Part shown: positions 5,317 through 47,360 of the stretch, piece after piece
How positions within the stretch are numbered: position 1 is the stretch's first letter
Layout of the letters: every line of letters begins with the position of its first letter
Assembly (NCBI GenBank): GCA_023336815.1
Contig: JAMBLJ010000036.1
Location: 13,991 to 77,990 of the forward strand
Length of the DNA stretch: 64,000 nt
Direction of reading: 5' to 3'
Origin: Actinomycetes bacterium
Lineage (GTDB): Bacteria > Actinomycetota > Acidimicrobiia > Spongiisociales > UBA5794
Position numbers and translations under genes: made by a program
The notes under the pieces: model-generated
Databases searched by the model: none
The model's input: the letters and a program-made list of their open reading frames with translations, nothing else
What the model was told of the DNA's origin: nothing

Positions 5317-6780
5317 ATGGCTTCCACAGCGCAGGTGAGCATCGTTGGGCTAGGTCCGGCGGGGATCGACCGCCTCGCAGCCGATGCGAAATCGATTTTG
5401 CTCGACCTCGATGCAACCGTGGTGCTCCGGACGACACATCATCCAACAGCTGCAGCGATCGCAACACAGCGCGATGTCACCACTTGCGACGATCTGTACG
5501 ACACGCTTCCCGAGTTCGATGAAGTCTATGAAGCGATAGCTGAGAGAGTTATCGTCGCCGCATCCCGCCGACGGGTCGTGTACGCCGTGCCAGGAAGTGC
5601 AGTGGTTGGCGAACGGGCCGTTGGAATGATCGTTGCCAGGTGCCGCGAGATCGGGATAGCCGTCGATGTATATCCAGGGCTGTCGTTCCTCGATCTCGCT
5701 TACATCGCTGTTTCTATCGATCCCATCACCGACGGTGTCCAGGTACTCGATGCGCGGGACCTACCCGACCCTCTCCCGCTTCATATCCCCACGCTGATTA
5801 CCCAGGTAGATTCGCCGCTTCGCGCATCGGATGTGTCTCTGGCCCTGACGCGCACACTCGACCCGGAGGCGCCGATCACGATACTCGATGCCCTCGGAGA
5901 CGATGATGAAGTCGTTGAGGTGACGACGGCTGCCGCACTGGCGAGATACGCCGGCGGATCGCGAACGACGGTCTTCGTTCCAGCGTCGTCCTCGGGGATT
6001 CTCGGATTGATCGCTACGAACAGGATCTTGCGCGAGACCTGTCCCTGGGATAAGAAGCAAACCCATCACACACTGCTCACACACCTCGTGGAGGAAGCCT
6101 ACGAAACGGCGGACGCGATCGCATCGCTCCCGGTTGGGGCACCTGAGGGCGATGCGGACTTCGGTGCATATGCAGAGGTCGAGGAGGAGCTCGGTGATCT
6201 GCTGCTTCAGGTCGTGTTTCACGCGACGCTTGCATCGGAGGCCGGAGCGTTCGACGTCGACGAAGTTGCTGAGGGGATACGACGCAAGCTCGTGGCACGT
6301 CATCCGCACGTATTCGGAGATGTGTCGGTTGAAGACGCCGACGAGGTACTTGCCAACTGGGAAGAGCTCAAGCAGAAGGAGAAGGGTCGCACAAGCCTCA
6401 TGGACGATGTACCCGTTGGGATGCCAGGGATCGCTAGAGCGACGAAAGTGCAGAACCGCGCGAGAAGCGTTGGCTTCGATTGGAGCGATATCGAAGACGT
6501 CGTAGACGTGTTGCGCGGTGAGATCGATGAACTCGTCGAGGCTGGTTCGGATGCTGAAGCGGTTGCTAGCGAGCTCGGAGACGTCCTCTTCTCCGCCGTC
6601 AACATCGGACGTCATCTTGGTGTCGATCCGGAGGTAGCGCTTCGCGGATCGGTCGATCGTTTCATGCAACGTTTTCGACTCATGGAGGAAGCGTTCATAA
6701 GCACAGGCACATCCATGCGCGAGGCATCGAACGAGATGCTCGAGAACGCGTGGGAGAATGCAAAGGAGACCCTGTCGTAG
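5317..6780 (+). CDS. mazG: MazG-family nucleoside triphosphate pyrophosphohydrolase with N-terminal tetrapyrrole-methylase-like domain (YabN-like)
   Basis: ATG at 5317 two nt after lipoprotein stop; N-terminal SIVGLGPAG methylase-like fold; tandem MazG EExGE-type helices (EELGDLLLQVVFHA, ELGDVLFSAVNIGRHLG, WEELKQKEKG). Confidence 0.8.
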   Translation: MASTAQVSIVGLGPAGIDRLAADAKSILLDLDATVVLRTTHHPTAAAIATQRDVTTCDDLYDTLPEFDEVYEAIAERVIVAASRRRVVYAVPGSAVVGERAVGMIVARCREIGIAVDVYPGLSFLDLAYIAVSIDPITDGVQVLDARDLPDPLPLHIPTLITQVDSPLRASDVSLALTRTLDPEAPITILDALGDDDEVVEVTTAAALARYAGGSRTTVFVPASSSGILGLIATNRILRETCPWDKKQTHHTLLTHLVEEAYETADAIASLPVGAPEGDADFGAYAEVEEELGDLLLQVVFHATLASEAGAFDVDEVAEGIRRKLVARHPHVFGDVSVEDADEVLANWEELKQKEKGRTSLMDDVPVGMPGIARATKVQNRARSVGFDWSDIEDVVDVLRGEIDELVEAGSDAEAVASELGDVLFSAVNIGRHLGVDPEVALRGSVDRFMQRFRLMEEAFISTGTSMREASNEMLENAWENAKETLS

Positions 6781-9977: not shown

Positions 9978-12038
9978 TTATTCCTTGGCAGCTGCCATGG
10001 CCTTGGCGACCAGATGCGAGGGGAGCTCCTGATAGTGGTCGAGTTCTGCGGTGAACCTGCCCCAGCCGTTGGTCAGCGATCTCAGATCGATCGCGTATCG
10101 AAGAATCTCGCTCGATGGGATATCTGCCTCGATCGTCTGGGAACCGTCGGACGCCGTCTGTGAGCCCTGCACAGCACCCCTGCGAGCGGCGATATCCCCC
10201 ATGACGTCACCCTGATACTGATTCGGAACAGTGATGGCGACTTTCGATACCGGCTCGAGAACGATGGGATTTGCACGGTCGAACGCCTCTCTGAAACCTG
10301 CACGCGCGGCGAGCTTGAACGCCATCTCGGAGGAGTCGACGGCGTGGTACTTCCCATCGTCGACGGTGATCTGGATATCCACGACTGGGTAGCCGTGGGA
10401 TCCTCCGTTCTCCATCGTCTCGATCGCGCCCTTCTCGACGGCGGGAATGAACTGTCTTGGGATGCTGCCGCCCTTGACCTTGTCCACGAACTCGAAACCA
10501 GCGCCCCGCTGACGGGGCGAAAGGATGAGATGGCATACGCCGTACTGCCCATGACCGCCCGACTGCTTCTTGTGTTTCCCATCGGCATCCGCGGTTGCGG
10601 TGATCGTTTCCCTGTACGCAACCTTCACCGGCACTTGGTCGACCTGGACACCGAACTTTCGGTCGAGCTTCTCAAGGGTAATCAGGAGATGCGTTTCGCC
10701 AAGACCGCTGAGGAGGGTCTGATGGGTCTCCTGGTTCTGTTCGACCTTCAAGGATGCATCCTCATCGATGATCCGCTGGAGGGAGGTTGACAGCTTGTCG
10801 TCGTCTGACTGGGTCCGTGCAACGATCGCGGTTGCGAGTACGGGTTGGGGTCTGTCGATGCCTGGGACCGTGACCGGGGCGTTTTTCGGGGCGAGCGTAT
10901 CGCCGGTCTTGGTGTCCAGCAGCTTCGCAGCGGCGATGATATCTCCGGCTGGTGCGGCCGACACGAGTGTTGTTTCCTTGCCGAACATCGTCGCGATCTT
11001 GGCGAGTCGTTCGTCCTGACCGGACCGGCCGTTGGTGAGGTGTGTCTCTGGCTTCAGCGTGCCCGACATGACCTTCATCAACGAGATCTGTCCGACATAC
11101 GCATCGGCGAGTGTTTTGAATACGAAGGCGAGGGGTTCCTGGTCAGGGTCCTTTGTTATCTCGATTTCCTCACCGCCTGCGAGAACTCTTGCAGGCGGTC
11201 GATCCTGGGGTGACGGCCCGATCTCGACGATGAAATCAGCGAGCCGGTCAACGGCGATCGGGCCGGTCGCAGAGCCACATACAACGGGGAAGACCGTTGC
11301 GTTCGCGATGCCGAGAGCCATGGTGGCCTCGAGCTCCTGCACACTCGGAATCGTTCCTTCCAGGTAGCCTTCGAGCAGATCGTCGTCTGCAACCACGATC
11401 CCTTCCACGAGGTTGTCGTGAACCTCATGCTCTTTGTCAGCGATCTCCTGGGGAATATCGACAACCTCGGCGGAGCCGGAGTCGTACACGTAGGCCTTGT
11501 CACGAAAGAGCCCAACAACCCCGCGGAAACTCGCCTCAGAGCCGATCGGCAGTTCGATCGGTGCGATACCTGCGCCGAACCTGTCGCGAAGCTCTTTGAG
11601 CGTCCGCTCGAACGATGCACGTTCCTTGTCGAGTTTGTTGATGAAGATCATGCGCGGGACCTGGAGCTTCTCGGCGATCCTCCATGCATACTCTGTCTGC
11701 ACCTCAACGCCCTCGACCGCACTTACGACGAATACGGCGAGGTCCGTGACGCGCAGAGCAGCGTGAACATCCCCAGAAAAATCCGCGTACCCCGGTGTGT
11801 CGATGAGATTGATCTTGTAGCCGAGCCACTCGAAGGGAGCCATTGCCATGGTGACGGTCATCTGGCGGGCATGTTCCTCAGGGTCGTAATCTGTGACGGT
11901 ATTCCCCGCCTCAACCGTTCCGATTCTTCCGATCGCACCGGCACGGAACAGGAGAGCTTCCGCAAGGGTCGTCTTGCCAGCACCGGAGTGACCAACAAGA
12001 GCGACGTTGCGGATCTTCTCAGGAGGGAAGACATTCAC
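9978..12038 (-). CDS. elongation factor G family GTPase (EF-G paralog)
   Basis: G1 motif GHSGAGKTT, DTPGYADF G3 motif, full EF-G domain series to C-terminus; likely start is GTG at 12038 preceded by AGGAG (12050-12046) rather than the ORF-track start at 12125 which abuts the tRNA. Confidence 0.85.
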   Translation of the reverse strand: MNVFPPEKIRNVALVGHSGAGKTTLAEALLFRAGAIGRIGTVEAGNTVTDYDPEEHARQMTVTMAMAPFEWLGYKINLIDTPGYADFSGDVHAALRVTDLAVFVVSAVEGVEVQTEYAWRIAEKLQVPRMIFINKLDKERASFERTLKELRDRFGAGIAPIELPIGSEASFRGVVGLFRDKAYVYDSGSAEVVDIPQEIADKEHEVHDNLVEGIVVADDDLLEGYLEGTIPSVQELEATMALGIANATVFPVVCGSATGPIAVDRLADFIVEIGPSPQDRPPARVLAGGEEIEITKDPDQEPLAFVFKTLADAYVGQISLMKVMSGTLKPETHLTNGRSGQDERLAKIATMFGKETTLVSAAPAGDIIAAAKLLDTKTGDTLAPKNAPVTVPGIDRPQPVLATAIVARTQSDDDKLSTSLQRIIDEDASLKVEQNQETHQTLLSGLGETHLLITLEKLDRKFGVQVDQVPVKVAYRETITATADADGKHKKQSGGHGQYGVCHLILSPRQRGAGFEFVDKVKGGSIPRQFIPAVEKGAIETMENGGSHGYPVVDIQITVDDGKYHAVDSSEMAFKLAARAGFREAFDRANPIVLEPVSKVAITVPNQYQGDVMGDIAARRGAVQGSQTASDGSQTIEADIPSSEILRYAIDLRSLTNGWGRFTAELDHYQELPSHLVAKAMAAAKE

Positions 12039-39544: not shown

Positions 39545-40780
39545 ATGAGCGATATCGAGATACGTCCCGTAACAGAAGCAGAGTTCGGAAACTTCACCGC
39601 TGCCATCTCTGAGGGATTCTCGAGCGATCTACGGGAAGTCATCGCCGAACGCGACCGCAGGGCCTTCCCTGTCGAACGCACCCTCGCTGCGTTCGACGGT
39701 GCGACGATCGTTGGAACCTTCGGAGGTCTCGATCTGACCCTCACCGTACCCGGCGAACAACAGATCGCCATCGAGGGGACGACCATCGTCACCGTGTTTC
39801 CTACGCACCGCCGCATGGGTCTTCTTCGGTCCATGATGGATCAGCATCTTGAACTCGCGTACCAGCGTGGAGATGCTCTGGCCGGGCTGTGGTCGTCGTC
39901 CAGCGACATCTACGGTCGGTTCGGATACGGCATCGCAACACACAGCCGGTCGCTGGCGATCGAGGGATCGCAGATCATATTTCGCGACAGCGTTGCGGTC
40001 GAACGGGTCCGACGTGTGTCCCCAGAGACCGTTGAAAGTGAGATCAGGGATGTGTATGGCAGAGTTGCTCTGCGTACCCCTGGGATGTTCGCCCGCGATG
40101 ACCTCATATGGCGTGATCATGTACTCGCTGATGACGAGTGGAAGCGGGAGGGGAGTACGACACATCGCTTCGTTGTGCATGATGGACCAAAGGGCGTCGA
40201 TGGGTATGCGATCTATCGACAGAAGGCGTCTGAGTCCAACGACGGGCATCCCAACGGAACGGTCTCGATTGTCGAGGTCATCGCTGAGTCCGCGGTCGGC
40301 CGTGCCTCGTTGTGGGCATATCTCACCCGGATCGATGGGTGCCCGAACGTGCGGGTGGGCAACGCTCCGCTCGTGGACCCGCTCTCAGCAATGGTGACGC
40401 AGCCTCGACGTGTTGCGGTGACGGCTGTGTACGACGCCCTCTGGATCCGGGTGCTTGATGTCGCGACCGCTCTTAGCACCCGACGATATGAGACCGATGG
40501 GTCGCTCGTCTTCGAGGTACTGGATTCGTTCCGCCCCGAATCAGCCGGTATCTATCGGCTCACCGTCGAGGGAGGGATCGGTACGTGTGGACGTAGCGAC
40601 GCCGACGCCAACGCTGACCTTCGTATCGACGTCGAAGCGCTCGGCGCCCTGTATCTCGGTGGAGGAAATGCCAACCACCTTGCTGATGCTGGCAGGGTTG
40701 TTGGATCGGCGGAGGCACTGCGTACGTTGCACCGCATGTTCCATACCGACGAACAACCCTGGTGCAACTGGGTGTTTTAG
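39545..40780 (+). CDS. GNAT family N-acetyltransferase, Eis-like (GNAT + central + C-terminal SCP2-like domain)
   Basis: 411 aa; N-terminal GNAT (MGLLRSMMDQHLELAYQRGDALAGLWSS, YGRFGYG), overall length/architecture of Eis family. Confidence 0.7.
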   Translation: MSDIEIRPVTEAEFGNFTAAISEGFSSDLREVIAERDRRAFPVERTLAAFDGATIVGTFGGLDLTLTVPGEQQIAIEGTTIVTVFPTHRRMGLLRSMMDQHLELAYQRGDALAGLWSSSSDIYGRFGYGIATHSRSLAIEGSQIIFRDSVAVERVRRVSPETVESEIRDVYGRVALRTPGMFARDDLIWRDHVLADDEWKREGSTTHRFVVHDGPKGVDGYAIYRQKASESNDGHPNGTVSIVEVIAESAVGRASLWAYLTRIDGCPNVRVGNAPLVDPLSAMVTQPRRVAVTAVYDALWIRVLDVATALSTRRYETDGSLVFEVLDSFRPESAGIYRLTVEGGIGTCGRSDADANADLRIDVEALGALYLGGGNANHLADAGRVVGSAEALRTLHRMFHTDEQPWCNWVF

Positions 40781-40782
40781 GT

Positions 40783-40866
40783 AGACAGCAGACAGCAGAC
40801 AGCAGATGACAGATGGCAGATGACAGACGGCAGACAGCAGACGGCAGACAGCAGATGACAGACGGC
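40783..40866. repeat. 12 tandem copies of 7-bp repeat AGA(C/T)(A/G)GC (consensus AGACAGC)
   Basis: Read directly: agacagc x3, agatgac, agatggc, agatgac, agacggc, agacagc, agacggc, agacagc, agatgac, agacggc in perfect 7-bp phase. Confidence 0.95.
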
Positions 40867-40868
40867 AC

Positions 40869-40903
40869 GTTTTCCGTTTTCCGTTTTCCGTTTTCCGTTT
40901 TCC
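40869..40903. repeat. 5 perfect tandem copies of GTTTTCC
   Basis: gttttcc x5 contiguous, 2 nt after the AGACAGC array. Confidence 0.97.
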
Positions 40904-40984
40904 GAAGAGGGTGTAGGTGGGCGGCGACGAATGCCGCGTGCTGATCAGTGCCGCAGCACCGGTTCGTCTTCTTGATTCCTGCCT

Positions 40985-41054
40985 CGGAGAACGGAAAACG
41001 GAAAACGAAAAGGCCATCAGCCATCAGCCGTCAGCCGTCAGCCGTCAGCCGGAA
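40985..41054. repeat. 10 phased heptamers: CGGAGAA CGGAAAA CGGAAAA CGAAAAG then GCCATCA x2, GCCGTCA x3, GCCGGAA
   Basis: Read directly; GGAAAAC units are the reverse complement of the upstream GTTTTCC array (inverted symmetry about an ~80-bp core containing CTGATCAG). Confidence 0.95.
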
Positions 41055-41071
41055 CCTGCAACGGTTTCTTC

Positions 41072-41094
41072 CCGGAGAACGGGAAACGGAAAAC
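41072..41094. repeat. direct repeat of CGGAGAACGG(G)AAACGGAAAACGA (second copy of 40985-41007)
   Basis: cggagaacgggaaacggaaaacga vs cggagaacggaaaacggaaaacga, 23/24 identical, flanking the GCCGTCA array. Confidence 0.9.
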
Positions 41095-41234
41095 GATGTC
41101 TCCTCCTTTCTCAATTCGTCTGCTTCTCCGTTCCGTGATAGGTTCAGCAATCCTCCCCGGGCCGGGCATCGACCCGAGAGGCTTGACAGCTCAACGTTGC
41201 CCGCTCCTTGAGGATGATTCCGAGGAGACGACAG

Positions 41235-44200
41235 ATGAGCACAAGATTCCCGCTGTACAACCCGCTGGAGCACCACGATGCGTGTGGTGTCGGGTTCATC
41301 GTTGACCGGTCGGCTACAGCATCGCACCGTATCGTTCGCCAGGGTGTCGAGTGTTTGCACAATCTCGACCATCGCGGTGCCCGTTCTCAGGATGGAACGG
41401 GTGATGGAGCAGGGATGATGACGAGGATCCCGTTTCGTCTCATCGAACGAGATCTTCGCACGAAGGCGATCGCTGTCCCCGACCGCAGCCGTATCGGTGT
41501 GATCACTGCGTTCCTCGACCCTGACGAAGCCGTGGGGGCTCGAAAGGCAGTAGAACGAGCCGTCGCTGACAACGACATGACCACGCTCACGTGGCGCCCC
41601 GTTCCAATCGATCCAAACATTCTGTCGGAAACTGCACGTGCATCGATGCCCGTGATCGAACAAGCGATCATCGAGTCATCCGAAGTCATATCCTCGTCAG
41701 ACCGGTTCGAGCGGTCGCTGTTCCTCGCTCGCAAGTCCATCGAGAACCGCCCGGTTGCGGGATGTGAGATCGTTTCGGCGTCAAGCCGAACGATCGTCTA
41801 TAAAGGGTTGTTCACCGCAGACACGATCGAAGCCTTCTACTGGGATCTGCGGGACCCGGTGTACGAGTCCGATTTCGTCATATTCCACCAGCGGTATTCA
41901 ACGAACACGAAACCTTCCTGGGCCCTGGCGCAGCCATTCAGGATGCTCGCCCATAACGGCGAGATCAACACAGTGCAGGGCAACAGATCGTCCATGGCTG
42001 CACGGTCGAACGACCTCGTCGAAGGGGTGTGGGGGACGCGTGTCTCTGAACTCGCCCCTCTCGTGCGATCGGGGATCGGTAGTGACTCAGCAAGCCTGGA
42101 CGAGGCTGTCGAGGTGCTTGTTCGCTCCGGGCGAGACCTCACTCATGTGAAGGAGATGCTGATACCCCAGGCGTGGGAGAACGTTCCCGATCTCGATCCG
42201 AAGTTGCAGGCGTTCTACGAGTACCACGCATTCCTTACCGAGCCGTGGGACGGACCGGCGGCTATCGCTGCAAGCGATGGGCTCACACTCATCGCAGGTC
42301 TCGATCGCAACGGTTTACGTCCAGCGCGGTGGACGGTCACACCAGATACTGTGCTTATTGCGTCGGAAGCCGGCATCGCTCCTGAGGTCGAGGTGCTCGC
42401 CACTGATACGGGCCAGCTTGGGCCAGGTGAGGTCATCGAAGTGGATCTCGCCGACGGGACGCTTCGATTCTCTGACCATGTCAAACGTCGGCTTGCGGCG
42501 AAAGCTCCCTACGCGGATTGGATCACAACGAACACGCTCTACGTTCGTGATCCGTTCGACGACCTCCAGGATGACCGCTTTGATGCCGAAGCCCTGGCGC
42601 GTGTGTTCGGCTACACCGCCGAGGAGCGCAGGCTCCTGCTCGAACCGATGGCCGGGGGTATCGATCCCATCCTGTCGATGGGTCACGACTCCGGTCTTGC
42701 GGTCCTTTCCGAGTTCCCACAGCGGCTTCCGCGGTTCTTTCACCAAGCGTTCGCTCAGGTTACGAACCCGCCGATGGATCCGATCCGAGAGAAACTTGTC
42801 ATGTCGTTGCGAACCTATGTTGGCCGGCACGGGTCGCTGCTGGAGGAAACCGAACAACAGGCGCACATGGTGGAACTGTCATCTCCGATCCTGTCGGATG
42901 CGGACGTCGAGGAGCTGTGCACGCTCACTGACCCGGCGTTCCGGTCTAAGTGGTTTGATATCCTTTTCGACCCCTCAGCTGGATCGATGGTTGACCGACT
43001 GGACGAGATCTGTTCTGCGGTCGAGGACGCTGTTCGCTCAGGGGTGTCGATCATCGTGCTGAGCGACAGGGGAACCACTCCCGAGCTCGCCCCCATCCCC
43101 ATCGTGCTTGCTGTTGGCGCTGTTCACCACAGGCTCATCGACACGGGTCTTCGGCTCCATGCGTCGATCATCGCCGTTTCGGGAGAACCGCGCGATGCGC
43201 ATGACATCGCGTGTTGCGTCGGGTTCGGTGCTGCCGCGGTGAATCCGTATCTTGCTATCGAGCAGGTTCGGGCACTCGCAGTAGAAGGCGCCATCACGCT
43301 TGGCGCCGTCGAGGCACAGGAGAACTACCGGTCAAGCCTTGAGAATGGCTTGCTGAAGGTCATGTCGAAGATGGGGATCTGCACCGTCAAATCGTACCGG
43401 TCGTCGGAGCTGTTCGAGGCGATCGGGCTTGATCCTGAGGTCTGTCAACTTGCATTCCGCAACGTGCACAGCAGGGTTGGCGGCCGCGGTCTCGCAGCGA
43501 TCCAGGACGATGCCGTCGCGCGTCACTCCAGGTACGTGAGCGAGGAAGCCGAGGTTGAGGGGTACTACAAACACCGCAGGGGCGGGATGCCGCATGTGGC
43601 CGCACCGATGGCAGTCCTGGCACTTCAGAAGGCTGTAAGAAGTGGTGACCAGATCGATTTCGAGCGATATCTGGATCTGGTTCAGGAAAGTCGCCCGGCC
43701 CTCGAACTCAGAGACCTGCTCGAGATAATGCCGTTCGGCCCCCCCGTTGCTGTTGAGAACGTCGAACCGATCGAGTCGATCATGCGTAGGTTCGTTACGG
43801 CAGCCATGTCGATGGGTGCGGTATCGAAGGAGGTCCACGAGACCCTCGCCGCGGCCATGCACAGGATCGGTGGCCGGTCGAATTCTGGTGAGGGCGGAGA
43901 GGATCCCTCGCGATTCGCTACGGACCGAAACTCCGTGATCAAGCAGGTTGCGAGCGGGAGATTTGGTGTGACTCCCGGATACCTCGCTTCTGCCGACGAG
44001 ATCCAGATCAAGATGGCACAGGGATCGAAACCTGGTGAAGGGGGCCAGCTGCCTGGGCACAAAGTATCTGTCGAGATCGCACGGCTCAGACACACCGAGC
44101 CGGGTATCACACTCATCTCGCCACCGCCCCACCATGACATCTACTCGATCGAGGACCTCGCCCAACTGATATATGACCTCAAGACGTTCAAGCCGACGGC

Positions 44201-45644
44201 GCGTGTTGCGGTAAAGCTCGTATCGGGGCCTGGTATCGGAACGATCGCTGTTGGTGTCGCCAAGGCATCTGCAGACGGGATCACCGTCTCCGGCAATGCC
44301 GGGGGCACGGGGGCATCGCCTGTCGTGTCGATGAAACACGCAGGGTCGCCATGGGAACTCGGTCTCGCTGAGGCGCATCAATCGCTCGTAGCCAACGGTC
44401 TGCGTTCTGCGGTCAGCGTCGAAACGGATGGCGGCTTGCGAACGGGACGTGACATCGTGGTCGCTGCCCTGCTCGGTGCTGATCGGTTCGGGTTCGGCAC
44501 CCTGCCCCTGCTTGCTCTGGGGTGCAAGATGGTGCGCCAATGCCACGAGAACACCTGCCCTGTCGGGATCGCAACACAACGCGACGATCTGCGAGCCAAG
44601 TACACCGGTTCCGTGGAACAGGTCGTCGCCCTGTTCGAGTTGATAGCGAGCGACGTGCGCTCGATCCTGGCCAGGATGGGCGCACGATCCCTCGACTCGA
44701 TCATCGGTCGCGGTGATCTGCTCGCGGCAACTGACGAAGGCCCGGGATCAGACCTCGCCTCGATGCTGGTGAGCGCACGGTCCGAGACGGATCGACGTTT
44801 CCGCGAACTCCCCGCGTCACCGCTTGGCGAGCAGTTGGCCTTCGCTGGTCGCTCGGTGCTCGATGGGAGGGATTCGCTCTCTGTTGCGTATCCCATCAGG
44901 AACACGGATCGGGCTGTAGGAACGAGACTCTCTGGTGAGATCGCAGCACGTCACGGAGATGCCGGATTGGTCGACCGGCGCTTCACTGTCCGTCTATCAG
45001 GTACAGCCGGTCAGTCGTTCGGTGCGTTCCTTGTGGAGGGTGTACATCTGGACCTCGATGGTGTTGCAAACGACTACGTTGGCAAAGGGATGGCAGGCGG
45101 TTCGATCGTGATCCGACCATTTACGGATTCACCCTCGATCCCGCACGGTGGTGGAAATGCCTGTCTCTATGGAGCCACGGGTGGCGAGTTGTTCATCGCC
45201 GGCAGCGTTGGTCAACGCTTCGCGGTCCGTAACTCCGGAGCCACCGCTGTCGTGGAGGGTGCGTCTGACCATGCGTGTGAATACATGACGGGGGGCAAGA
45301 TCGTCGTTCTCGGCCCTGCCGGTCGCAACATCGCTGCGGGTATGAGCGGGGGAGTGTTGTTTCTGTACGACGAAGCGATGACGATCAAGGCGCACATGTC
45401 CGACACAGCGCCTGCTGCAACGAGACTCGCGGCGACCGACCGTGACGAGCTACGGCTTCTCTTGATGGAGCACCTGGCCCGCACCGGGTCACGTGCAGCG
45501 GCAGCGCTTCTCGGTGGCTGGCACCAAGCCCAGGACCGATTCTGGGTGGTGAGACCAAAGGCGCCTCTGACTGATGGTGCGTTGGATGTCACGGAGGTTG
45601 AAGCGCAGAAATCAGACACCAGACACCAGACGACAGACACATAG
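41235..45644 (+). CDS. gltB: glutamate synthase large subunit (GOGAT alpha)
   Basis: 1469 aa; N-terminal Ntn amidotransferase Cys (HDACGVGF), central domain, FMN domain (GEGGEDPSRF...), C-terminal GXGXG beta-helix domain; ATG at 41235 chosen over TTG at 41208. Confidence 0.95.
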   Translation: MSTRFPLYNPLEHHDACGVGFIVDRSATASHRIVRQGVECLHNLDHRGARSQDGTGDGAGMMTRIPFRLIERDLRTKAIAVPDRSRIGVITAFLDPDEAVGARKAVERAVADNDMTTLTWRPVPIDPNILSETARASMPVIEQAIIESSEVISSSDRFERSLFLARKSIENRPVAGCEIVSASSRTIVYKGLFTADTIEAFYWDLRDPVYESDFVIFHQRYSTNTKPSWALAQPFRMLAHNGEINTVQGNRSSMAARSNDLVEGVWGTRVSELAPLVRSGIGSDSASLDEAVEVLVRSGRDLTHVKEMLIPQAWENVPDLDPKLQAFYEYHAFLTEPWDGPAAIAASDGLTLIAGLDRNGLRPARWTVTPDTVLIASEAGIAPEVEVLATDTGQLGPGEVIEVDLADGTLRFSDHVKRRLAAKAPYADWITTNTLYVRDPFDDLQDDRFDAEALARVFGYTAEERRLLLEPMAGGIDPILSMGHDSGLAVLSEFPQRLPRFFHQAFAQVTNPPMDPIREKLVMSLRTYVGRHGSLLEETEQQAHMVELSSPILSDADVEELCTLTDPAFRSKWFDILFDPSAGSMVDRLDEICSAVEDAVRSGVSIIVLSDRGTTPELAPIPIVLAVGAVHHRLIDTGLRLHASIIAVSGEPRDAHDIACCVGFGAAAVNPYLAIEQVRALAVEGAITLGAVEAQENYRSSLENGLLKVMSKMGICTVKSYRSSELFEAIGLDPEVCQLAFRNVHSRVGGRGLAAIQDDAVARHSRYVSEEAEVEGYYKHRRGGMPHVAAPMAVLALQKAVRSGDQIDFERYLDLVQESRPALELRDLLEIMPFGPPVAVENVEPIESIMRRFVTAAMSMGAVSKEVHETLAAAMHRIGGRSNSGEGGEDPSRFATDRNSVIKQVASGRFGVTPGYLASADEIQIKMAQGSKPGEGGQLPGHKVSVEIARLRHTEPGITLISPPPHHDIYSIEDLAQLIYDLKTFKPTARVAVKLVSGPGIGTIAVGVAKASADGITVSGNAGGTGASPVVSMKHAGSPWELGLAEAHQSLVANGLRSAVSVETDGGLRTGRDIVVAALLGADRFGFGTLPLLALGCKMVRQCHENTCPVGIATQRDDLRAKYTGSVEQVVALFELIASDVRSILARMGARSLDSIIGRGDLLAATDEGPGSDLASMLVSARSETDRRFRELPASPLGEQLAFAGRSVLDGRDSLSVAYPIRNTDRAVGTRLSGEIAARHGDAGLVDRRFTVRLSGTAGQSFGAFLVEGVHLDLDGVANDYVGKGMAGGSIVIRPFTDSPSIPHGGGNACLYGATGGELFIAGSVGQRFAVRNSGATAVVEGASDHACEYMTGGKIVVLGPAGRNIAAGMSGGVLFLYDEAMTIKAHMSDTAPAATRLAATDRDELRLLLMEHLARTGSRAAAALLGGWHQAQDRFWVVRPKAPLTDGALDVTEVEAQKSDTRHQTTDT

Positions 45645-45660
45645 GCCACGTCTGTCGTCT
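45613..45660 (+). terminator. heptamer repeat (CAGACAC x4) forming the gltB 3' end plus 11-bp-stem hairpin spanning the stop codon
   Basis: cagacac cagacac cagacga cagacac (45613-45640); stem AGACGACAGAC (45628-45638) / GTCTGTCGTCT (45650-45660) with the TAG stop in the loop. Confidence 0.5.
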
Positions 45661-45956
45661 CACATCTGGAATCTGTTGGCTGTGAACTGATAGCTTCTTC
45701 TTCCTCTTCTTCTGCCGTCTTACCGACATTCTCTGGAACATTGCGGGTGTGCTTGACGTTGTCTGTATACGAGTTGCGGCTCTCCCGGGTGGCCCGGTCT
45801 TCCCCCACTCCCACTCGCAGTCACCCGGGTGAGTCGCACCAAGCTCACCTCCAACTGCTTGAGAAACATCGGTGTTCAACCTTCGAAATCCAGGTACACT
45901 GGTTTCACCTAGCCGCGTAGTGCAATCTCGGTTAGACCCATCAACGAGGAGCGATC

Positions 45957-47360
45957 GTGACCACAGTCGATATCGATCTTGGCAGCTATCAGCTCGGCTG
46001 GTCCGACGAAGAAGACTACGTTTTTAAGCCTGAGAAGGGTCTCGACGAGGAGCTCATCCGCACGATCTCGTCGATGAAGGGCGAGCCGGAGTGGATGCTT
46101 GACTTCCGTCTCAAGGCGTACAAGCGGTTCCTCAACAAGCCGACACCTCAGTGGGGTGGTGGTGGTCGTCTCGATGAGATCGACTACGACGACATCTACT
46201 ACTACATCAAGCCAACCGAGGGCCAGGCCAAGGATTGGGACATGGTTCCCGACTCCATCAAGGAGACGTACGAGAAGCTGGGTATCCCTGAGGCCGAGCG
46301 CAAGTTCCTCGCCGGTGTGACAGCGCAGTACGAGTCCGAGGTCGTGTACCACCGCAACCGTGAAGACCTTGAGAAACTCGGTGTCCTGTTCTGTGACATG
46401 GACACCGCGGTTCGGGAGTACCCCGAGCTCGTTCAGGAGTACTTCGGCACGATCATCCCGCCGAACGACAACAAATTCGCTGCGTTGAACTCGGCCGTAT
46501 GGTCCGGTGGCTCGTTCATCTACATTCCACCGGGTGTTCATCTCGAGGAGCCCCTTCAGGCGTACTTCCGTATCAACGCTGAGAGCATGGGTCAGTTCGA
46601 GAGAACACTGATCATCGTTGACGAGGGTGCGTTCTGTCACTACGTCGAGGGCTGTTCAGCCCCTACGTACACATCAGATTCTCTCCACGCAGCGGTTGTC
46701 GAGGTCGTCATCAAGGAAGGCGGCAGATGTCGCTACACGACGATCCAGAACTGGTCGAACAACGTCCTCAACCTCGTCACCAAGCGCGCAGCGGCATACA
46801 AGAACGCCACGATGGAATGGATCGATGGCAACCTCGGCTCCGGGCTCACGATGAAGTATCCGGCCGTGTGGCTGATGGAAGAGGGTGCGCACGGCGAGGT
46901 TCTCTCGATCGCCTTCGCCAACACAGGTCAGGTTCTCGATGCCGGAGCCAAGATGGTTCATGTTGCATCGAACACAACGTCACATATCACGTCAAAGTCG
47001 ATCAGCAAGGGTGGCGGACGTTCGATGTACCGGGGTCTCGTACGTGTTGAAGAGGGCGCAACGAACGCCAAGTCCTTTGTTATGTGTGACGCCCTGTTGC
47101 TCGACGAGGACTCTCGATCGGACACATACCCGTATATGGAGATCGAGGAGTCCAACGTCGACATCGGTCACGAAGCAACAGTGTCGAAGGTTGGTGAAGA
47201 TCAGTTGTTCTACCTCATGAGCAGGGGTCTCAGCGAGGCCCAGGCAACAGCCATGATCGTCGCAGGTTTCATCGAGCCGATCGTCAAGGAACTCCCGATG
47301 GAGTACGCAGTCGAGCTGAACCGCCTGATAGAGCTTCAGATGGAGGGCTCCATCGGATAG
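45957..47360 (+). CDS. sufB: Fe-S cluster assembly protein SufB
   Basis: 467 aa; GTG start with AGGAG RBS; SufB core ([22 protein letters not shown], beta-helix region) ; no sufC/sufD/sufS downstream. Confidence 0.85.

Follow-up and report, generated by a model that had tools for sequence, protein, structure and literature searches.

Why should the last codons of a glutamate synthase gene be written in a tandem array of seven-nucleotide units, and why should the stop codon that follows them lie in the loop of a hairpin? The question is posed by gltB in a 64,000-nt stretch of contig JAMBLJ010000036.1 (assembly GCA_023336815.1, positions 13,991 to 77,990; ‘the window’ below), from an uncultured lineage of Acidimicrobiia. 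The answer that we favor, with a probability of about 60%, is that the array forms one side, the left arm, of a palindromic heptanucleotide-repeat element belonging to the long simple-sequence repeats (LSSRs), built here of genome-specific CAGAC-NN units, and not a device for the regulation or amplification of gltB. The element probably has no function for that gene.

Read directly, the 3′ end of gltB from 45606 to 45644 (positions are those of the window, on the forward strand unless otherwise stated) runs CAGAAAT (45606-45612), CAGACAC (45613-45619), CAGACAC (45620-45626), CAGACGA (45627-45633), CAGACAC (45634-45640), a single A and the TAG stop codon (45642-45644). In the gltB frame the array (45606-45640) is translated as the tail of the protein, QKSDTRHQTTDT*. 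The initial annotation, made from these letters, had proposed that four CAGACAC copies, one of them in the form CAGACGA, encode the last codons, and both the reading and Tandem Repeats Finder (TRF; 45613-45640, period 7, 4.0 copies, score 42) confirm this. Its perfect 11-bp inverted repeat, AGACGACAGAC / GTCTGTCGTCT, is real as well and lies at 45628-45638 and 45650-45660, with the TAG in its 11-nt loop. The palindrome extends further, imperfectly, with 45606-45638 and 45650-45682 being 73% complementary over 33 nt. Its right arm (45650-45682, minus strand), which on the plus strand reads GTCTGTC GTCTCAC ATCTGGA ATCTGTT GGCTG and gives three minus-strand matches to the repeat pattern, is a decayed array of reverse-complement units of degenerate CAGAY-NN form. 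Chance is a poor explanation for such units: CAGACRNCAGAC has 7 matches in the window against 0.18 expected, all at the two sites flanking gltB, and the periodic pattern CAGAYNNCAGAYNNCAGAY, with at most one mismatch allowed, has 16 against 0.07 expected, all within 40782-40863 and 45606-45682. As RNA, the 101 nt around the stop codon (45595-45695) have a predicted folding energy of −38.6 kcal/mol (z = −3.8; 0 of 200 shuffles as stable), and as DNA one of −18.5 kcal/mol (z = −2.8), the stem consisting of periodic 4-5-bp helices with internal loops between them. G-quadruplex-forming repeats of the Xanthomonas type have at least four G- or C-tracts of three bases or more; the CAGACAC and GTCTGTC units are without any GGG or CCC run, which rules out a reading of the arrays as G-quadruplexes.

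Does the protein need the residues that the array encodes? The gene (41235-45644, forward strand, ATG to TAG, by its open reading frame (ORF) and translation) specifies a full-length large chain of 1469 amino acids in which all four Pfam GltB domains are found, and the product is 100% identical to protein P0001 of a metagenome-assembled genome listed at NCBI as ‘Actinomycetia bacterium’. Aligned with the GltB structures in the PDB, the protein is homologous as far as FWVVRPKAPL, which corresponds to Azospirillum residue 1463 of 1479. In each of 120 homologues (120/120) conservation reaches FWV(L/V)RP, in the window the FWVVRP codons at 45540-45557, and the sequences are unrelated right after it. 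Even clusters of proteins at least 90% identical hold two to four unrelated tails. The initial annotation had called the tail repeat-encoded and of low complexity, and the alignment of these 120 C-termini places it outside conserved GltB. To judge by these comparisons the tail is dispensable as well as repeat-encoded, and it is variable and probably disordered. ETRHQ, DTRHT and PRREQT, which were considered as a tail motif conserved at the protein level, turned out to be translations of related DNA units or of the in-frame GGGAACA promoter region. The C-terminal tail of GltB is unconstrained, and the annotated ends of the protein in this clade are arbitrary.

What, then, occupies this place in relatives? 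The orthologous locus was collected from 20 relatives by exact-protein look-ups and by a metagenome contig scan for the conserved motif just downstream; a contig scan with a C-terminal GltB fragment gave no close relatives, only GltBs at most 58% identical, among the matches listed. Between the FWV(L/V)RP codons and a conserved GGAAC motif lies what we term the cassette, which could be delimited in 20 loci and which in the window (45558-45734) holds the heptamer palindrome, with a pyrimidine tract, (CTT)n, at its right end (45694-45718). The tract is common to L001 and L097, where its counterpart pairs with GAAG-rich units of the left arm. The cassette is hypervariable: alignment puts its identity between relatives at the level of shuffled sequence and that of its flanks at 76-97%. 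Seven-nucleotide periodicity is nevertheless frequent in it. The window cassette scores 18/21 against a shuffle mean of 9.5, with none of 200 shuffles reaching 18, and among 19 Acidimicrobiia loci 12 exceed all shuffles, 2 are marginal and 5 have none. At least six different units are found, namely CAGACAC (window, L004), GCCGACA (L003), ACGACAC (L005), CCAGAGT (L006), GGTTCAC or AGTTCAC (L089, L091, L093, L095, L099) and CAGCAGT (L098). At the short extreme, L094 has just 34 nt from RP to the promoter motif.

Though the units differ, their arrangement does not. Ten cassettes could be scored, and in each of them the second array departs less from the reverse complement of the first (0-3 mismatches, mean 1.5) than from the first as it stands (3-4 mismatches); since the second arm is complementary in every case, the palindromic layout is the rule and the sequence is free. 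How quickly the sequence can change is best illustrated by L005 and L098, two loci with 97% identity both in the final 618 nt of conserved gltB and in the 150 nt that follow the cassette. The cassettes themselves, of 96 and 95 nt, are 53% identical, to be set against 43-52% for shuffled cassettes. Identity ends right after the RP codons and resumes at GGGAACAC, which points to a wholesale change of both arms and not to gradual drift. The ACGACAC array of L005 continues directly from GAGGACGACAC, which is present as a single copy in the same place in L093; this fits slippage from a local seed.

Each genome also tends to use its unit at more than one site. In relatives the second array follows nucS or a pyridoxamine-oxidase-like gene, or precedes gltB, and arrays begin at, or a few bases past, the stop codon of the upstream gene (right after that of nucS in L006, L087 and L089). 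Compared with the unit of the same genome's gltB cassette, the second array is identical in L006 and L095, has one mismatch in the window and L003, two in L089 and three in L005, and only 2 of 720 permutations of genomes share units as well. The CAGAC-NN family itself is private to this genome among those sampled, and neither (CAGACNN)x3 nor GTTTTCCGTTTTCC was found in any of the 100 fetched loci.

The window's own second array lies on the other side of gltB. It belongs to a compound palindrome of heptamer arrays, 315 nt long (40783-41095), that starts 3 nt after the stop codon of an eis-like GNAT acetyltransferase gene (39545-40780, forward strand; assigned by Pfam, with the same synteny in relatives). 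Along the forward strand are 12 copies of CAGAYRR (40783-40867), 5 of GTTTTCC (40868-40904), 4 of GGAAAAC (40985-41011), 5.6 of GCCRTCA (41013-41051) and 3 of a GGAAAAC-like unit (41073-41095). The layout is A-B…B′-A′, the outer arms pair with one A·A mismatch in each unit, and the predicted RNA fold is of −133 kcal/mol (z = −6.0). Most relatives have short eis-gltB spacers from which this palindrome is missing. L096 (8655-9644) and L097 (7047-8036), the nearest relatives of the window, have the space between the eis-like gene and gltB occupied by an oppositely oriented PALP-family gene; in the window the same space holds the heptamer arrays. The two consensus units, CAGACAC at the gltB stop codon and AGACAGC upstream, differ after rotation at one of seven positions, a closeness reached by only 1.7% of random heptamer pairs, and this bears out the initial view that both arrays are of one heptamer family in the same orientation. 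Relatives have arrays at the ends of other genes in the same way, and with its start 3 nt past the eis-like stop codon the upstream array makes most sense as the 3′ element of the eis-like gene, not as something placed to bracket gltB. Two consecutive genes each have a 3′ element, and gltB is therefore bracketed by arrays.

How might such an element have arisen? In the explanation that we prefer, it fills the only DNA free of constraint between FWVVRP, where the functional part of gltB ends, and the promoter of the transcription unit that follows. No frame of the array contains a stop codon, and the gltB frame would simply run into it and on to the first in-frame stop, which by chance would be in the loop of the hairpin. 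Slippage of the 7-nt unit during replication would lengthen and shorten the arrays; strand-switch (fold-back) copying or gene conversion would preserve the complementarity of the second arm; and the same unit would spread to other sites 3′ of genes in the genome. The effects on gltB would be by-products, namely a C-terminal tail that varies and a stem-loop of high stability at the stop codon. The co-variation of the arms, the replacement of a cassette between near-identical flanks and the pattern of one unit per genome are the reasons for envisaging a copying process beyond simple slippage.

The hairpin is strong enough to ask whether it is instead selected as RNA. A stem-loop at the 3′ end of the message might terminate or stabilize the gltB transcript and insulate the promoter and leader of the next gene, sufB, from read-through, and with the stop codon in its loop a terminating ribosome and the hairpin would be mutually exclusive. 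The stability given above speaks for this, as do the position, exactly between the end of gltB and the conserved promoter motif where a terminator would be expected, the maintenance of complementarity as units change in all the scorable cassettes, and the start of arrays elsewhere too right after stop codons. Hairpins of repetitive extragenic palindromic (REP) elements near stop codons in Escherichia coli affect translation and mRNA stability, and terminators of actinobacteria are often without U-tracts. The stem here, however, has none after it, being followed by CACATCTGGAATC. Intrinsic terminators combine a GC-rich stem-loop with such a tract, of which only the stem is present, and a scan for consensus terminators and promoters gave nothing at the hairpin. 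Five relatives lacking an array (L002, L087, L092, L096 and L097) show no fold of unusual stability (z from +2.0 to −1.8), which rules out a conserved essential hairpin, and L094 has room for very little. Nor is the sense strand consistently favored: the antisense gives the better fold in L005, L089, L090, L095 and L099, and the mismatch that recurs in L089 and L095 is C·A on the sense strand and G·U on the antisense. Because there is no U-tract or recognizable terminator, array-free relatives do without a stable fold and the sense strand is not favored, a conserved RNA function is unlikely and the palindromes look like a DNA-level product; we regard selection for an RNA stem-loop as doubtful, if deserving of serious attention. 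A narrower proposal confines the RNA role to this genome. The 11 nt between the Shine-Dalgarno sequence and AUG of gltB (41225-41235, GAGACGACAGA) are exactly complementary to 45651-45661 in the right arm (UCUGUCGUCUC), whose pairing with them might modulate translation, the left arm being a competing mimic. Complementarity of this length was reached by 1 of 300 random segments, the 10-mer AGACGACAGA occurs three times in the window (0.33 expected), at exactly the ribosome-binding region and both arms, and the 3′ untranslated region of Staphylococcus aureus icaR reportedly pairs with its own Shine-Dalgarno region. Yet none of ten relatives has the complementarity (0/10), so that conservation of the icaR kind is absent, the local 11-bp hairpin should outcompete pairing over 4.4 kb, and the match may be just a family unit that lies by the start codon, some 130 nt away from the upstream arrays. 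We consider this 5′-3′ pairing very unlikely.

Other explanations place the action in the DNA. In the initial annotation, direct repeats of one family bracketing gltB about 4.8 kb apart could drive its tandem amplification or deletion by homologous recombination. Unit family and orientation are indeed common to both sides, and here the support ends. Between 40781-41100 and 45596-45700 no exact direct match exceeds 7 nt (GACAGAC), a length that 105-nt segments taken at random from the window reach as their median, and the best gapless similarity of the two arrays is 69% over 39 nt. RecA-dependent exchange needs some 20-30 bp of uninterrupted identity, and since the longest match is far below this the arrays are no substrate for homologous recombination; what they share, to go by the alignment, is microhomology. 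Relatives, moreover, usually have an array on the 3′ side only, the order eis-like gene, gltB, sufB is stable without rearrangement of the locus in any relative examined, and the upstream array is assigned to the preceding gene. We give this proposal next to no credence and see no basis for expecting amplification of gltB. Could the arrays be mobile or actively written? As heptamer hairpins in the manner of REPINs (paired REP hairpins), they might be spread by a trans-acting enzyme (a transposase of RAYT or IS200 type, or similar) or kept for a DNA- or RNA-binding protein specific to the unit, which would account for the ‘dialect’ of each genome. It would fit with a unit that is common to distant sites in one genome and different at the same site in close relatives, with the replacement of the whole cassette at near-equal length between the almost identical flanks of L005 and L098, and with palindromes located 3′ of genes, as those of REP and REPIN are. 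However, no transposase or mobile gene is near any of about 20 loci, the neighbors being housekeeping genes whose order is conserved; the arrays vary in copy number and have neither terminal sequences in common nor target duplications; and the L005 array appears to have grown from a local seed. Mobility is, we think, improbable. There is also a bolder view. Each genome in the clade would keep its own heptamer dialect and write it at several sites 3′ of genes, overwriting both cassette arms at about the same length within 3% of flank divergence, by active, sequence-specific copying in place of passive slippage, with the right arm here also targeting the gltB ribosome-binding site. Candidate systems would be synthesis templated by the hairpin, conversion from a master copy, and an enzyme or binding protein so far unrecognized. 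This, too, we put forward as a speculation with the odds well against it.

The interpretation of the array as one arm of a genome-specific repeat element has its own difficulties, and they should be gathered in one place. Its mechanisms of origin, that is slippage, template switching and conversion between loci, are deduced from the letters of extant sequences, and slippage alone leaves unexplained both the joint change of the two arms and the unit shared by distant loci. The genome is sampled over 64 kb only, within which reuse of the unit amounts to two loci, and assemblies from short reads may collapse the copy number of arrays. In the window, further, it is the sense strand that folds better (z = −3.2, against −1.4 for the antisense), which makes a local or lineage-specific RNA effect possible, if not required. 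The complementarity of the right arm to the ribosome-binding region of gltB likewise suggests a possible lineage-specific RNA role.

The surroundings of the element are as constant as its interior is variable. In every relative examined the gene order is eis-like acetyltransferase, gltB, sufB, nucS and then a sigma-70 gene on the opposite strand. The gene 3′ of gltB in the window, at 45957-47360 on the forward strand, is sufB by Pfam and by synteny in relatives, and nucS is the next. A gltBD operon had been a candidate, and the Pfam identification of the downstream gene as sufB, not gltD, disposes of it. The right boundary of the cassette is a candidate promoter motif, GGAAC-N17-CGTT (45735-45760, forward strand), recognized by sequence comparison in 20 of 20 loci (window, L001-L003, L005, L006 and L087-L100) with an invariant spacing of 17 nt and a variable spacer sequence. 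From the consensus sequences of extracytoplasmic function (ECF) sigma factors we take it to be of ECF-sigma type, and by its sequence and place it looks like the promoter of the sufB leader. That leader begins at about 45768 and has a strongly conserved long hairpin (45773-45840) upstream of sufB, with an invariant C-rich loop, TCTTCCCCCACTCCCACTCGCAG; three of its 24 predicted pairs have compensatory changes among 14 sequences, and the hairpin probably represents a 5′ leader RNA, so far undescribed, of the Acidimicrobiia suf operon. Palindromic boxes resembling CACCTAGCCGCGTAGTGCAAT follow the hairpin and are duplicated in L005 and L098. The 5′ leader of gltB is conserved as well: GATAGGTT…CCTTCCCGGGCCGGGCAYCGACCCGA…CGTTGCCCG at 41125-41234 of the window has counterparts in L001 (230-319), L002 (2610-2709) and L003 (about 2000-2105). 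This leader, common to the closest relatives, may be a regulatory leader or promoter region. An Rfam search of 40000-47000 at E ≤ 1 gave nothing relevant, and so no curated RNA family for the 3′ hairpin, the sufB-leader hairpin or the gltB 5′ leader.

In many bacterial genomes no long simple repeat is commoner than the heptanucleotide array, whose origin and purpose have been open since 1990. The present locus adds an uncultured actinobacterial lineage to their carriers, and the most useful new facts to come from it are the arm-by-arm co-variation, the replacement of a cassette between near-identical flanks and the use of one unit per genome. The value of the gltB-sufB cassette is that of a natural comparative series, a single orthologous site confined between a conserved block of codons and a conserved promoter motif, at which even very close relatives have come to differ in unit, in copy number and in both arms. 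How the arms stay complementary, how loci come to share a unit and whether the hairpin acts thereby become testable.

How does the element compare with what is known? It resembles intrinsic terminators in having a stable stem-loop where a gene ends and before the next promoter. It differs from them in its lack of a U-tract, in the stop codon in its loop, in a stem made of 4-5-bp helices and in its absence from several close relatives, though hairpin terminators without a U-tract do exist in actinobacteria. The REP elements of Proteobacteria, together with bacterial interspersed mosaic elements (BIMEs) and REPINs, are imperfect extragenic palindromes at the 3′ ends of genes, in species-specific families and often in inverted pairs, and can stabilize the mRNA upstream or, near a stop codon, influence translation. 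Their length is fixed, at about 35 nt; they are not tandem heptamers and are linked to RAYT transposases. The present element resembles them as an imperfect palindrome at a gene's 3′ end with a sequence family particular to the genome, and is unlike REP and REPIN elements in its varying lengths, its want of common termini and the lack of a transposase among the neighboring genes of the loci examined.

It is with the genome-specific intergenic heptanucleotide repeats, LSSRs and the similar short tandemly repeated repetitive (STRR) sequences of cyanobacteria, that the element belongs, and it has every feature of this class that was tested. Tandem arrays of 7-nt units are present in three or more copies, beyond chance. 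One unit family is reused at several loci, two of them in the 64 kb of the window, with the same in L003, L006, L095 and L089. The sites are non-coding, at the 3′ end of an upstream ORF with occasional overlap, as with the array at 40783, 3 nt after a stop codon, and that at 45606, which overlaps the unconserved tail of gltB. Inverted pairs of arrays are frequent (10 of 10 scorable cassettes, plus the A-B…B′-A′ structure upstream). The position is kept between relatives while length and sequence vary (12 of 19 loci, at least six units).

When TRF was run on distant loci as a positive control, it recovered the STRR arrays of Nostoc and a palindrome, CGGGAAT/ATTCCCC, of Luteimonas. The latter, in Luteimonas saliphila (L040, 10745-10870), has CGGGAAT ×4 … ATTCCCC ×4 filling the spacer between gltB and the next gene, a repeat of the published Xanthomonas type in the same kind of position. 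A more elaborate arrangement occurs in an uncultured bacterium (L007, GltB 58% identical), where 4-5 copies of a repeat of about 140 nt come directly after gltB (10690-11560), each copy consisting of a GGGGGGACGACCCCCC hairpin and a GCGTTCT heptamer array, with a complementary GAACGCC array upstream of gltB (6072-6104).

Among described families, heptamers were found by Mrazek to be the commonest long simple repeats, with polymerase slippage as the idea for their origin (as cited in PMC4692102 and PMC4679880). The TAACTGA arrays of Beggiatoaceae sometimes overlap stop codons (PMC4679880). Geobacter metallireducens has GGGACCG ×4 at 49 sites and MTYCTGA ×5 as pairs on opposite strands (PMC2700814), and in their genome-specific heptamers of 4-5 units, their dozens of sites and their partly opposite-strand pairs these families are like the present one. 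They are unlike it in having been proposed as regulator-binding sites or regulatory RNAs, in lying within as well as between genes, and in their units; no cross-strain comparison is reported in that paper (PMC2700814). The nearest likeness is to the heptameric repeats GGGAATC and GGGGA(C/T)T described in Xanthomonas and Nostoc (PMC4692102) and to the cyanobacterial STRR heptanucleotides (Mazel et al. 1990, as cited in PMC4692102). Xanthomonas GGGAATC forms 186 arrays (Rehm et al. 2015, PMC4692102), 70 of them in inverted (convergent) pairs, 89-93% intergenic and 7-11% overlapping ORFs, with an average distance of 28 nt from the end of the ORF upstream; their positions are common to the species, their lengths and sequences vary, and the authors identified no role for them (PMC4692102). 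Here, as there, are tandem 7-nt units in about four copies, one family at many sites of a genome, a preference for intergenic DNA just past the upstream stop codon with a minority over the ends of ORFs, frequent inverted pairs able to form stem-loops, and positions conserved in relatives with variable length and sequence. The differences are that the present units are without G-tracts and without G-quadruplex potential; that the host is of an uncultured Acidimicrobiia lineage and the family is known from 64 kb; and that the unit, far from being conserved in the clade, changes between strains whose flanking sequences are 97% identical.

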